This document shows, piece by piece, positions 54,822 through 59,320 of a stretch of DNA of 63,480 nucleotides (its first letter is position 1; every line of letters begins with the position of its first letter). Made by a program: the position numbers and the translations under genes. Source of the DNA: Draconibacterium orientale (GTDB lineage Bacteria; Bacteroidota; Bacteroidia; Bacteroidales; UBA1556); contig DYSI01000005.1 of the NCBI GenBank assembly GCA_020718275.1, positions 1 to 63,480 on the forward strand. Reading direction: 5' to 3'. The notes under the pieces were generated by a model, which was not told the origin of the DNA, did no database searches, and worked only from the letters and a program-made list of their open reading frames with translations.

Positions 54822-57128
54822 TTACTGTTTAAGAATTTTGAGTTTTGCAAATTTTAATAAAAGGTTTTTAGTTCCTGAGTTATTGAAGAATACGGTAGCT
54901 TTGCGATCGGCGCCAATACCTTCAAGGGTAAGGACTTTGCCTCTTCCAAAGCGGTCATGAAAAACTTCCATTCCCACTTGTATACTTTCAGATTGGTCGG
55001 TAGAGGTTCCGTTGTGGCTCTGGCTCATTCTTCGCAAATTGCTTGGCACAGCCTCTGGGGCTTTTACTTCGTTACTTTTGGGTTTTTCGTAGAATGACGC
55101 CTTGGATTTGGCTTCGGCGGATGTTTTGATAGTTGGTTTTGCGGTTAATATTCTGTCAGAGGTTTGGTCGTCGATATATTGAGGGTCTAGTTCCTCGATA
55201 AAACGGCTGGGTTCGGAATATTGTAAATTTCCCCACTTAAATCTGCTTTCGGAATAGCTAAGGAACACTCTTTTTTCGCCACGGGTGATGGCTACATAGA
55301 ATAGTCGGCGTTCTTCTTCTATTTCGGCTCTTGAATTGAGTGATAGGAGTGAAGGGAAAAGGTTTTCCTCCAAACCAACAATAAAAACGTAAGGAAATTC
55401 AAGTCCCTTGGAGGCGTGAATGGTCATCAGGGTAACGTATTCACCGTCGATTTTACTTTTTTCGTCGGCATCAGTATGCAAGGCAATATCTTGCATGAAC
55501 TCACTGAGTGTACGGATATTACCAGCTCCAACTTCATCGTTTTCAAGTTCTGAAAATTCTTTTATAGCCGAGAGCAATTCTTCCATATTTTCAAATCGCA
55601 TGACGCCTTCGTCCTCGTCTTTTGCATGATACATAGTGGAATATATACCTGAATGTTTGGTAATATGCTCCGCAAGTTCGTAAGCGTTTTTGATATTAAG
55701 ATCAAGTCTGAAAGCCCGAATCATATTCACAAATTCCAAAATAGTAAGGGCGGCACTTCGGGCAATGATGGGGTTTGATTCCAGCCGTTCGAGTAAAGCC
55801 CATAGCGAAATATTTAGCCGATTAGCTTCTATGCGTAACTTTTCGATACTGGTTTGACCAATTCCTCTTTTGGGGTAATTGATAACTCTCAAGAGGGCTT
55901 CTTCGTCGTGAGGATTAATGACAAGCCTGAAATAGGCCAGAATATCTTTAATTTCCTTGCGACTATAAAAGGATAGTCCTCCAAAAATGCGATAGGGAAT
56001 ATTCATTTTGCGCAAGCCCTCTTCTATTGATCTAGATTGGGCATTAGTACGATAAAGAATGGCAAATTCAGAGTCTTTGGCTTGCTCGTTATTTTTAATG
56101 TCGAAAATAGTTCGCGCTACTAAACTTCCTTCCTCATTGTCGCTTAAGGTGGAGTGTAGGGTGATTTTTTCGCCTGTGCTATTTTCTGTCCAAATCGTTT
56201 TGTGAATTTGCTTTTTGTTTTGGCTAATGATGGCATTGGCAATTCCCACTATGTTTTTAGTAGAGCGGTAGTTTTGTTCTAATTTATAGGTGTTAAGCTG
56301 AGGGTAATCTTTGTTGAGATTAAGAATATTTTGAATGTTTGCGCCTCTGAAGGCGTAAATGCTTTGGGCATCATCTCCAACCACAGTTAAGTTTTCGTTT
56401 TGTGCTGCAAGTCTCTTTACGATAAGGTATTGTGAGTGATTGGTGTCCTGGTACTCGTCTACTAAAAAGTATTTGAAACGTCTTTGATATTTGATAAGCA
56501 CATCCGGAAAATCGCGAAGAAGTACGTTGGTATTGAAAAGTAAATCATCGAAGTCCATGGAAGCAGCTTTACGCAATCGCTCTTGATATAAGGTGTAAAT
56601 CATTCCCATTTTTCCTCTGCCACTGTCTTTGTCGGCTTGGGTTAACTCGGGATTATTGTTGTATTCTGCGGCCGATATTAGATTGTTTTTGGCACTGGAT
56701 ATTCTTCCTAAAACATTGCTTGCTTTGTACACCTTATCATCTAATTGTTGCTCTTTCACAATTTTCTTGATGATACTTTTACTATCGTCGGTATCGTATA
56801 TGGTAAAGTTATTTGGAAATCCTATTTTTTCGGATTCAATGCGTAAAATGCGTGCGAAAATGGAATGAAAAGTACCCATCCAAACGTTACGAGCTTCGGT
56901 GCTCTCAACCAATTGCTGAATTCTATTTTGCATTTCACGGGCTGCCTTATTGGTAAAAGTAAGCGCCATGATGCTAAAGGGGTCAACGCCTCGATGAATC
57001 AAATAGGCTATTTTGTAGGTAAGTACTCTGGTTTTGCCCGAGCCTGCTCCTGCAATAATCATACTGGGTCCTTCGGTTTGTTTTACAGCAAATTGCTGTT
57101 CTTCGTTCAATTGTTCTAATAAATTCAT
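54822..57128 (-). CDS. uvrD: UvrD/PcrA ATP-dependent DNA helicase
   Basis: AGAGSGKT, TFTNKAA, DEYQD, VGDDAQSIY.FRGA, QNYRS, TIHASKGLEF, EERRLFYVA.TR; -7 TATCTTTG at 57269-57276. Confidence 0.96.
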   Translation of the reverse strand: MNLLEQLNEEQQFAVKQTEGPSMIIAGAGSGKTRVLTYKIAYLIHRGVDPFSIMALTFTNKAAREMQNRIQQLVESTEARNVWMGTFHSIFARILRIESEKIGFPNNFTIYDTDDSKSIIKKIVKEQQLDDKVYKASNVLGRISSAKNNLISAAEYNNNPELTQADKDSGRGKMGMIYTLYQERLRKAASMDFDDLLFNTNVLLRDFPDVLIKYQRRFKYFLVDEYQDTNHSQYLIVKRLAAQNENLTVVGDDAQSIYAFRGANIQNILNLNKDYPQLNTYKLEQNYRSTKNIVGIANAIISQNKKQIHKTIWTENSTGEKITLHSTLSDNEEGSLVARTIFDIKNNEQAKDSEFAILYRTNAQSRSIEEGLRKMNIPYRIFGGLSFYSRKEIKDILAYFRLVINPHDEEALLRVINYPKRGIGQTSIEKLRIEANRLNISLWALLERLESNPIIARSAALTILEFVNMIRAFRLDLNIKNAYELAEHITKHSGIYSTMYHAKDEDEGVMRFENMEELLSAIKEFSELENDEVGAGNIRTLSEFMQDIALHTDADEKSKIDGEYVTLMTIHASKGLEFPYVFIVGLEENLFPSLLSLNSRAEIEEERRLFYVAITRGEKRVFLSYSESRFKWGNLQYSEPSRFIEELDPQYIDDQTSDRILTAKPTIKTSAEAKSKASFYEKPKSNEVKAPEAVPSNLRRMSQSHNGTSTDQSESIQVGMEVFHDRFGRGKVLTLEGIGADRKATVFFNNSGTKNLLLKFAKLKILKQ

Positions 57129-57509
57129 TTAGTAGCTTATGTCGATAGAATACGGTAAACAATTTGCGATTAATTCAAAACCAATAACAATAAATCATTA
57201 GATTATTGATAGCTAAATGCCTTATATTGTTTAAATTATACAGTAAATATGTTCATTTTTTTCCTGTACAAAGATAGTTAAATACTATTACTAGTCAGCA
57301 TGATAGATTTATAGGTTTCATTATTATTTTATCCTTAGGAGGTTATTCTGCTTTTCATCTTTGTTAAGTTGTTGGTTGATGGTTTTTTAGTTCAAATATT
57401 TGCTTTAATTCTGGCTGTTTTTTTAACTTAATATTTTAGTATTGATGGAAGTAGCTTAACCTTAGAATGCGGTTATCACTATTGCTTGGCACTCAACGCA
57501 TTTTTAATC

Positions 57510-57603
57510 CTACACCATATATTTTTTAAAAGGTATTTTACCTAGTCGAATTAGGTATTATAGCCCTCATTTAATGAGCGCTGGCTGGTGTAGTTTTGCT
57601 TTT
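57510..57603 (+). ncRNA. Candidate structured RNA element (multi-branch hairpin), family unknown
   Basis: Outer stem CTACACCA / TGGTGTAG enclosing TACCTA / TAGGTA and CTCATT / AATGAG hairpins; T-rich tail. Folded by eye only. Confidence 0.3.
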
Positions 57604-57621
57604 AAATAAAAATATAAATCC

Positions 57622-57708
57622 ATGAAAGGTTTAATCGCATTGTTCAAATTATCGCTCATCGGCTCAGTGGTGATGCTTCTTTGTATGTTTTTGTCGATTT
57701 ATTTCTAA
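57622..57708 (+). CDS. Unannotated 28-aa hydrophobic small protein MKGLIALFKLSLIGSVVMLLCMFLSIYF
   Basis: ATG..TAA read directly; AT-rich leader TAAATAAAAATATAAATCC; TAGTTTTG -7 match at 57591-57598; + strand terminator downstream. Confidence 0.5.
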   Translation: MKGLIALFKLSLIGSVVMLLCMFLSIYF

Positions 57709-57951
57709 TTCCTTGTTTCGTTGAAAGAAGTAAATTATGAAGTAAAATTATCTCAAAAGCGACATTTAGCATAGGGAGTCGGCTAATTATAAATTGAATT
57801 TTAAGTGCTTACGTTTTATTGAAAAACGCTAAGTTGAAATGAGAGAATTATAAATAAATGAAGAATTTTGCGCCAATATTCTAAAGCAAAATAGTGAAAA
57901 TTACGTGGACACTCAATAAAAAGCGTAATGGTTGTTTTTTAGTTCGGTAGT

Positions 57952-57992
57952 GAAACTCTATTCCTTTTGGTAATAGGGTTTCCTTTTTTTTT
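57952..57992 (+). terminator. + strand intrinsic terminator
   Basis: GAAACTCTATT / AATAGGGTTTC stem (one G-U) followed by C and nine T. Confidence 0.8.
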
Positions 57993-58030
57993 GGTTATTA
58001 AAACCTTTGGCGAATTAGTTCACTAGAATC

Positions 58031-59320
58031 TTACTCTTCGATAGCGGAAAATTCTAATTGATTGTATCCAAAGCTTCTATTGAAAACAATATTCGTGGCG
58101 CCTAGATTATCGATTATATATTTTTTGCAAGAGGTTTCTATTCTATTAAACTGGAGATTGTTCTGGAACAAGTCGATCAAAGTTTCATTTAATTCGGACG
58201 TATTATTTACACAAAAAGCTGCCTTTAGTTGAATCAAGTCGATTGCTTCTTTAAATTTTCGGTAGTTCGGGCCAAAAATTATTGGTTTACCAAAACAGGC
58301 AGCCTCCAAAATATTATGGATACCAGCCCCGAAACCACCTCCAATATATGCAATATCAGCGTATTGGTAGAGATGCATAAGACTTCCAACCGAATCGATT
58401 AGCAGTATTTTTGATTCATGGGCATAATTGGGTTGTTTGCTTATTTCTGACCAACGAATTGGTTTCAATTCTTTAAATAGGTGCTCGATTGATTGCAAGT
58501 GACTTTCGTCTACTTCGTGGGGTGCAATAATCAGTTTAATAGTTTCTTGGGGTAAAATTGTTTCAAAAAGGGAACTTGAAATAGCCCTCTGTAGTAGCTG
58601 TTCATCTTTTTTCCAAGTGCTTCCTGCAATGATTACGCGGCTATTTTTACAAAATTGAAATACTGAATCAAACTGATTAGGCAGCAATGTATTACTATAC
58701 ACCCTGTCGAATCGTGTATCGCCGCTTACACTCACATTTTGAAGTCCAACTTCTAATAGTAACCTCATCGATTGTTGGTCTTGAAGAAAAATATGCTCAA
58801 AGTAACCAAGTTTATCCTTAAACCACTTAGCATACGATTTAAAAAAGTATTGTTTTGGTCTGAAAATGCCTGAGAGTAAGTAAAGTGGTATATTTCGTTG
58901 GTGTAATTCGATGATATAATTGTACCAAAATTCGTATTTAACGAAAAAGACGATTTCGGGTTGGATGATTTGGATAAAATCGCGAGCGTTTTTTGGTGTG
59001 TCGATTGGTAGATAATAGATGTAATCTGCCAAGGGATAGTTTTTTCGAAGTTCGTAGCCTGAGGGAGAGAAGAATGTGACGAGTATTTTTTTGTGTGGAT
59101 ATTCTTTTTTAATCCTTTCAATCAGGGGGCGTGCTTGCTCAAATTCTCCGACTGATGCACTATGTATCCAAACGATGTAGCCAGGTCTAAGCTCTTTTTT
59201 AATTTTATGTAACAGTCCTTTACGTCCTTCTATCCATTTTGAAGCCTTGGAGTTGAAATGCGAAGCAAACCAAACGAGTAGGTAGTAAAAATATACAGTT
59301 AAAGAATAAAAGTGTCTCAT
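58031..59320 (-). CDS. waaA: 3-deoxy-D-manno-octulosonic acid transferase
   Basis: WIHSASVGEFEQ, TFFSPSG, KYEFW, GDTRFD, AGSTW, APH, GGGF..GIHN.LEAA; -7 TAAATTTG at 59343-59350. Confidence 0.95.
   Translation of the reverse strand: MRHFYSLTVYFYYLLVWFASHFNSKASKWIEGRKGLLHKIKKELRPGYIVWIHSASVGEFEQARPLIERIKKEYPHKKILVTFFSPSGYELRKNYPLADYIYYLPIDTPKNARDFIQIIQPEIVFFVKYEFWYNYIIELHQRNIPLYLLSGIFRPKQYFFKSYAKWFKDKLGYFEHIFLQDQQSMRLLLEVGLQNVSVSGDTRFDRVYSNTLLPNQFDSVFQFCKNSRVIIAGSTWKKDEQLLQRAISSSLFETILPQETIKLIIAPHEVDESHLQSIEHLFKELKPIRWSEISKQPNYAHESKILLIDSVGSLMHLYQYADIAYIGGGFGAGIHNILEAACFGKPIIFGPNYRKFKEAIDLIQLKAAFCVNNTSELNETLIDLFQNNLQFNRIETSCKKYIIDNLGATNIVFNRSFGYNQLEFSAIEE

Follow-up and report, generated by a model that had tools for sequence, protein, structure and literature searches.

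The 902-nt gap between uvrD and waaA (57129-58030) raises the question of whether a small gene lies hidden in it and, if so, what kind of product that gene would make. The window (the whole 63,480-nt stretch of DNA that was analysed) is contig C78 of a 1.97-Mb genome assembly that consists of 80 contigs, is 71% complete and has a G+C content of 37%. A sequence-only reading of the window had proposed that the gap contains an unannotated plus strand unit with a promoter, a leader, a 28-codon ORF and a terminator, possibly encoding a type I toxin or acting as a dual-function RNA. Gene calls place both neighbours on the minus strand, as that reading had it: a UvrD-type helicase at 54822-57128 (Pfam match at 1e-86) and the Kdo transferase WaaA at 58031-59320 (8e-48). 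The -7 box of uvrD itself, TATCTTTG (57269-57276, minus strand), lies outside the small-gene unit and marks its left limit. The uvrD gene appears to have a conserved long leader (57129-57276), with the -7 box 141-148 nt 5' of the ATG in this genome; all four syntenic congeners have a box in the corresponding position, which there lies 142-181 nt away from the gap's uvrD end. At the other end of the gap, the WaaA protein of this genome extends approximately 11-15 residues past the end of the congener alignments (58031-58075).

A perfect -7 element had been claimed at 57591, and our motif scan located TAGTTTTG at 57591-57598 on the plus strand, starting 31 nt before the ATG of the ORF. This box agrees with the -7 part of the sigma-ABfr promoter consensus (TAnnTTTG at -7 and TTTG at -33, as quoted from PMC7366714) and is the only perfect plus strand TAnnTTTG within the gap. 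The motif alone is weak proof of a promoter, with 112 copies in the window compared to 88.5 +/- 9.7 in shuffled sequences. No TTTG is present near -33 upstream of the box. The nearest equivalent is TTTA at 57570-57573 (plus strand, 17 nt 5' of the -7 box), a weak match at three of four positions, which bears out the earlier remark that no clear -33 element is visible. The box and the ATG are separated by an A-rich spacer of 23 nt, in keeping with the AT-rich leader that had been described. The box starts 31 nt before the ATG in the window and 30 nt before it in a paralogue on another contig of the same genome (C61), and the leader is therefore probably roughly 18-20 nt long. With transcription starting near 57604, the predicted 5' UTR (57604-57621, plus strand) would be approximately 18 nt long; the segment is rich in A and lacks any Shine-Dalgarno sequence. 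PMC7366714 gives 23 nt as the modal 5' UTR length of B. thetaiotaomicron. According to PMC6847099, Bacteroidetes mRNAs have no Shine-Dalgarno sequences, so that their absence is normal for the phylum, and an A at -3 favours initiation; among the three loci of the family described below, the C61 copy alone has this A.

The ORF (57622-57708, plus strand) comprises 28 codons and a stop codon and encodes MKGLIALFKLSLIGSVVMLLCMFLSIYF, a predicted single-pass membrane peptide. Both its coordinates and its mean Kyte-Doolittle hydropathy of 1.95 match the earlier description of a 28-codon ORF that is essentially one transmembrane helix. The peptide resembles a Sec signal peptide that consists of the n-region and h-region only, without a cleavage site or cargo. 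It and its two homologues stop 2-7 residues past a cysteine, within the hydrophobic stretch, and none of them has the make-up of a cleavable Sec signal peptide. In a lipobox the cysteine is immediately preceded by G, A or S, all small residues, and we rejected a lipoprotein signal peptide because leucine precedes the invariant cysteine in all three peptides (MLLC, LALC and LSLC). Searches with hmmscan returned no Pfam family for any of the three peptides at E <= 10. NCBIfam gave no family either; its one match, to MerF for one of the three peptides, scored 16.2 bits against a cut-off of 50 and was dismissed as hydrophobic noise. The nearest named clusters in the ESM Atlas, which was queried with the 32-codon stop-to-stop frame, were YncL, YkgR and PmrR of E. 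coli, at 0.80-0.82, values that serve as leads only, being below 0.9. These three proteins are alike in size, in having a single hydrophobic helix and in being encoded by stand-alone genes missed by gene callers, but they come from a different phylum and none of their families was found by the Pfam search at E <= 10.

Downstream of the ORF, a predicted 3' UTR of 240 nt (57709-57948, plus strand), in which, as everywhere between 57709 and 58061, no plus strand ORF of at least 20 aa is listed, leads to a predicted intrinsic terminator (57949-57992, plus strand). As expected of such an element, a stable hairpin (57949-57983) passes directly into a U run in the predicted transcript (T9, 57984-57992). 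Its hairpin has a folding energy of -15.4 kcal/mol, compared to -7.1 +/- 2.2 for shuffled sequences (z = -3.83; 0/200 shuffles as good). A terminator had been expected about 245 nt downstream; it is present, but its hairpin starts 240 nt after the stop codon. The T run is confined to the plus strand, as had been stated (T9 on the plus strand and none on the minus strand), and the minus strand version of the hairpin is weaker (-11.4). A simple terminator scan missed the hairpin at 57949. Scanning the 902-nt gap for a hairpin followed by a T run gave none on the minus strand and one other on the plus strand, which is weak (-9.4) and overlaps the -7 box. No minus strand terminator lies 3' of waaA, where the sole hairpin is the plus strand terminator of the small gene. 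A terminator common to the small gene and waaA was ruled out because the T run is missing on the minus strand.

The whole predicted mRNA of the window unit folds marginally better than shuffled sequences (z = -1.98). As regards the suggestion of a dual-function RNA, the 3' UTR is conserved neither between paralogues nor between species. A 13-nt unit is repeated twice at 57727-57751, and a tandem-repeat artefact was ruled out because this array, the only one, sits in the 3' UTR. We also observed a near-copy of the start region of the small gene at 57846-57884 (AATTATAAATAAATGAA versus AAATATAAATCCATGAA, 82% over 17 nt); it precedes an 8-codon mini-ORF (MKNFAPIF) inside the 3' UTR and is probably due to chance.

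We compared the gap with related genomes by blastn and tblastn, the searches that had been named as a check, and these recovered both a homologue and a paralogue of the ORF. The blastn search against 41 related genomes gave one meaningful match, in congener G001 (81% identity over 52 nt, E = 2.7e-6). This match spans -17 to +35 around the ATG, i.e., it runs to codon 12, and past codon 12 the DNA is unalignable. In the leader part of the match (-17 to -1), 14/17 positions are identical. The G001 ORF encodes a peptide of 25 aa (MKGLIVLFKFSLGIIVLVLLSLCIV), and the paralogue in the window's own genome (C61:52358) encodes a peptide of 24 aa (MKGLTLLFKLSIAFLIVLALCWII); tblastn between the two paralogues reached only E = 0.115. 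All three peptides have the common start MKGL..LFK.S and one cysteine, and ten residues are invariant among them (M1, K2, G3, L4, L7, F8, K9, S11, L20 and C21).

Within codons 1-12, the window copy and the G001 copy differ at eight nucleotides, six of them at third codon positions (P = 0.02). Third positions account for 8/14 differences between the C61 and G001 copies (P = 0.06) and for 6/12 between the window and C61 copies, a proportion that is not significant alone (P = 0.18). Four of the six to eight differing codons are synonymous in each of the three pairs, and serine 11 is encoded by three different synonymous codons across the three copies. These substitutions look like those of coding DNA, with statistics that rest on few sites because the family consists of three distinct members only. 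Beyond codon 12 all three frames stay open and hydrophobic (1.95, 2.16 and 2.45), contain one cysteine and stop at 24-28 codons. Sequences of the G001 type were also compared with one another: contig C192 of G001 and metagenome contig L059 are identical over the whole 78-nt ORF, with three differences in 150 nt upstream and seven in 167 nt downstream of it, and contig C75 shows no difference over the part of the ORF that it covers.

T-rich DNA readily gives hydrophobic frames, which counts against reading such an ORF as a gene. As a control we used 1185 ATG ORFs of 18-45 aa in intergenic-like DNA of the genome, 53 of which have a hydropathy of at least 1.5 and eight of at least 2.0. The combination of a hydropathy of at least 1.8 with a perfect TAnnTTTG no more than 45 nt upstream was found in just two of the 1185, and these are exactly the two paralogues. 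The locus appears to be more than a chance arrangement because of the comparative data and not because of the motifs themselves. The paralogue, the homologue in a congener, the codon substitutions and the promoter-to-ATG distance together give good support to the earlier proposal of an unannotated small-protein gene, and we consider that the ORF is very probably a real gene.

The same comparisons bear on whether the product is instead a non-coding RNA, either the transcript of approximately 390 nt or a shorter sRNA ending at the same terminator, with an incidental ORF and with the -17 to +35 block conserved at the RNA level. Conservation between species is limited to that one 52-nt block, which starts in the untranslated leader, and a one-mismatch box at 57863 (GAATTTTG) could start an RNA of approximately 115 nt that ends at the terminator. 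The only Rfam match is to BTnc201 (RF04177) at 57897-57991 (E = 0.62), which the locus resembles in that a terminator hairpin with a U tail comes after a small hairpin. However, this match reaches 21.4 bits where the gathering score is 105, and it is mostly due to the terminator hairpin, and we rejected membership of BTnc201. The 3' part is conserved in none of the 41 genomes searched, the differences concentrate at third codon positions, including the three synonymous codons of serine 11, and the frame remains open and hydrophobic where the DNA can no longer be aligned. We therefore regard a purely RNA-level function as improbable.

The small-protein gene occurs in varied surroundings. The C61 copy lies on the opposite strand to both of its neighbours, which encode an H+-pyrophosphatase and a TPR protein, and these two genes are not adjacent in congeners. 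Its -7 box (TATATTTG) has CTTG 18 nt further upstream, and its ORF is followed by a 3' UTR of approximately 130 nt and then by a hairpin of -15.1 kcal/mol with a T-rich tail (TCTTTTGT). The fold of this unit has a z score of -3.48. The G001 locus lies between queG and the convergent gene lepA. No perfect box is found at the same distance from its ATG; TAAATTTG occurs further upstream and a one-mismatch box lies at approximately -29. We looked for a plus strand terminator at the G001 locus and found none. We counted G001 as one locus because its contigs C192 and C75 share an overlap of 238 nt (97.9% identity) and the metagenome contig joins both contexts, carrying queG, the small ORF and lepA. 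In the window's genome, queG is followed by a different gene, without a small ORF. The three loci are located at three unrelated sites, and at each of them the small ORF is followed by a convergent gene.

A further sequence with a similar start was found in another congener, G003, where a minus strand gene (L022, 1-1563) encodes a secreted protein of at least 521 aa that belongs to no Pfam family. An apparent transcriptional-regulator-like ORF adjoins this gene. The protein starts MMKGLSILFKFSVALFALILF (as read, MMKGLSILFKFSV), and its signal peptide, which begins MMKGLSILFKFS, fits the pattern MKGL..LFK.S; a one-mismatch -7 box lies 30 nt before the first ATG. In contrast to the small ORFs, which stop inside the hydrophobic core, the G003 peptide is followed by a c-region (TLFA/QGG) and by the rest of a protein that measures at least 521 aa, and it does not contain their invariant cysteine. 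The likeness suggests an evolutionary link between the start of the G003 secreted protein and the small ORFs, though the match is statistically weak.

This likeness raises the question of whether the small ORF is what is left of the 5' end of a gene that once encoded a secreted protein and then decayed. An internal deletion would have spared the promoter, leader and signal peptide of that gene as well as its old terminator downstream. The first 12 codons of the G003 gene are like those of the small ORFs at 23-26/36 nt, while the small ORFs share 22-28/36 nt with one another, and such a deletion would be expected to leave a promoter and a short ORF, then a long 'UTR' and a terminator. However, decay would need cuts after 24-28 codons at three loci, and all of the tails past the cysteine are purely hydrophobic (MFLSIYF, WII and IV), none showing the polar residues of a random read-out. 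The genome was searched for the body of the G003 protein and yielded neither a homologue nor a remnant (the best tblastn match has E = 1.6, and none lies near either copy), the HMM match to G003 itself is weak (E = 0.03 per genome, 15 genomes searched), and the pattern of synonymous change indicates continuing constraint. We consider it unlikely that the ORF is a pseudogene remnant.

To characterise the distribution of the small-protein gene, we examined the uvrD-waaA region across the genus. WaaA proteins are only 45-60% identical across the genus, which is therefore deep. The two genes are adjacent in four of the 13 congeners with a waaA match. In all four the gap measures 200-255 nt and contains no hydrophobic small ORF and no plus strand terminator. 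Because the syntenic congeners (4/4) have a short gap without such a unit, we take the unit to be accessory DNA. The extra DNA in the window amounts to approximately 650-700 nt, made up of the unit itself and approximately 310 nt upstream of it.

The family has three distinct members, in 2/15 genomes of the genus. An HMM built from the three peptides found nothing else credible in these 15 genomes; five of the 14 weak hits (E >= 0.3) were inspected and lie inside larger frames or in non-hydrophobic frames. Across 151 genomes of the order, the HMM gave two hits with E <= 0.01 outside the window's own genome, neither of them a member. The pattern MKGL..LFK matched nine other genomes among 401 of the order, compared to 12 for the reversed control, and a stricter pattern applied to species-representative genomes matched two loci, G001 and a chance match (MKGFRGLFKFSYKTD). 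A scan of metagenomes returned 21 loci, with one true member that is identical to the G001 peptide; the other 20 were rejected, having a hydropathy of 1.38 or less or being long or unrelated frames. Viral contigs gave one chance match only, and tblastn against plasmids gave nothing. The family is new and very narrowly distributed, and the unit is very probably an accessory gene for a predicted small membrane peptide.

From the promoter of uvrD to that of the small gene (57277-57590) there are approximately 310 nt of extra DNA, for which the gaps of the four syntenic congeners are too short; they contain no Rfam match and no ORF of note. On the plus strand this stretch folds better than shuffled sequences (z = -2.83; 0/100 as good), compared to z = -0.24 on the minus strand, and the predicted fold is closed as a whole by a helix of 11 nt (57289-57299 paired with 57580-57590). 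In blastn, a T-rich part of it (57394-57440) aligned with one segment of G025 and two of G027, both genomes of other families (lengths of 25-43 nt, identities of 81-96%, E = 8e-4 to 9e-4); these three short hits may reflect low complexity and chance, or else a small element common to the genomes. Direct repeats at 57377-57393 and 57929-57945 (88% over 17 nt) were considered as insertion scars but are indistinguishable from chance.

Patchy distribution and a hydrophobic product are both relevant to the suggestion that the small ORF is the toxin of a type I toxin-antitoxin system. Under that proposal the peptide would damage the membrane when made, and an unrecognised RNA would block its translation or destabilise its mRNA; candidate places for such an antitoxin RNA are antisense to the long 3' UTR or to the ORF, or within the 310 nt upstream. 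The peptides have the size and hydrophobicity of type I toxins (28 aa and 1.95 in the window, 2.16 and 2.45 in the homologues; all are 24-28 aa and all-hydrophobic). The unit is autonomous, runs opposite to its neighbours and is present in two copies per genome at unrelated sites. It is patchy, occurring in 2/15 genomes of the genus with the same site empty in 4/4 congeners, and has long 3' UTRs (240 nt and approximately 130 nt). The 5' UTR/ATG region (57604-57623) can pair with the end of the ORF (57685-57704, 70% over 20 nt) and with an upstream segment (57303-57323, 76% over 21 nt), and the upstream 310 nt are structured on the plus strand only. Seven putative, unvalidated type I pairs are described for B. 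thetaiotaomicron in PMC7366714.

In this respect the sequence-only reading fared unevenly. The insertion-like, multi-copy distribution and the long 3' UTR fit a type I toxin, but our searches gave no RNA partner, no perfect minus strand -7 box between 57277 and 58405, and no minus strand hairpin-plus-T-run in the gap. One-mismatch boxes such as that at 57750 (minus strand) are frequent, with 25 in 902 nt. A genome search for partners complementary to the 5' region of either copy found none above chance: the best complementary matches are uninterrupted words of 13-18 nt, and the one that recurs, on contig C27, falls within a coding gene. The pairings within the gap are AT-rich and imperfect and are not common to the C61 copy, and the consensus promoter and unstructured leader suggest free expression. 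On balance, we find a true type I system at this locus possible but rather doubtful.

Comparison with described systems leads to a similar position. The short all-hydrophobic type I toxins of E. coli include Ibs (with the Sib RNAs) and ShoB. The small ORFs resemble them in encoding approximately 20-30 aa with one hydrophobic helix and in forming autonomous intergenic units that are patchy and present in several copies. They differ in that no antisense or divergent RNA partner was found by our searches, and in showing no sequence similarity and no Pfam or NCBIfam match; toxicity of the peptide is a candidate property here. The B. thetaiotaomicron pairs described in PMC7366714 are similar in belonging to Bacteroidales, in being small intergenic ORFs and in having the same promoter type, but those pairs are overlapping antisense transcripts seen by RNA-seq, whereas the present locus is known from its sequence and has no second transcript evident in it.

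We also considered a broader proposal: that this is a mobile intergenic gene for a 'cargo-less signal peptide', representing a new Bacteroidales family of membrane-acting peptides of the type I toxin kind, linked to the start of the G003 secreted protein and restrained by an RNA element in its own UTRs or in the upstream 310 nt. We regard this as decidedly speculative. If true, this would be one of the first type I-like toxin families to be defined by sequence in Bacteroidota, a phylum in which type I toxin systems have so far been proposals from transcript maps, as presented in PMC7366714.

Our preferred explanation is that the unit is probably a monocistronic gene that stands alone and belongs to a small-protein family not described before. 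From the elements, homologues, coding-type substitutions and insertion relative to congeners set out above, we infer the following course of transcription, translation and membrane insertion. The sigma-ABfr-type promoter with its box at 57591 would start an mRNA near 57604, and ribosomes would initiate at 57622 after an A-rich leader of approximately 18 nt without a Shine-Dalgarno sequence. The product of 28 residues would insert in the inner membrane as a signal anchor, with a predicted topology in which K2 and K9 stay on the cytoplasmic side and the hydrophobic tail with the invariant cysteine spans the bilayer. The mRNA would run on through the untranslated tail of 240 nt to the intrinsic terminator at 57949-57992. 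As to what the peptide does, a harmless role as a modulator or stress peptide, as for many of the small E. coli proteins with one helix, is quite conceivable, if short of probable; a membrane-damaging toxin of the type I kind is possible, though we lean against it; and some other role, or none, takes up the rest.

The practical value of the locus is modest, the family being tiny, the organism uncultured and the peptide a candidate for either a toxin or a harmless membrane peptide. Gene callers skip such short ORFs, and the small membrane proteins of uncultured Bacteroidales are essentially uncharted. The locus provides a concrete candidate among them, for which promoter, ORF and terminator are defined and two paralogues and one homologue are available, and it shows that an intergenic site between housekeeping genes, though otherwise conserved, can gain a unit of this kind.
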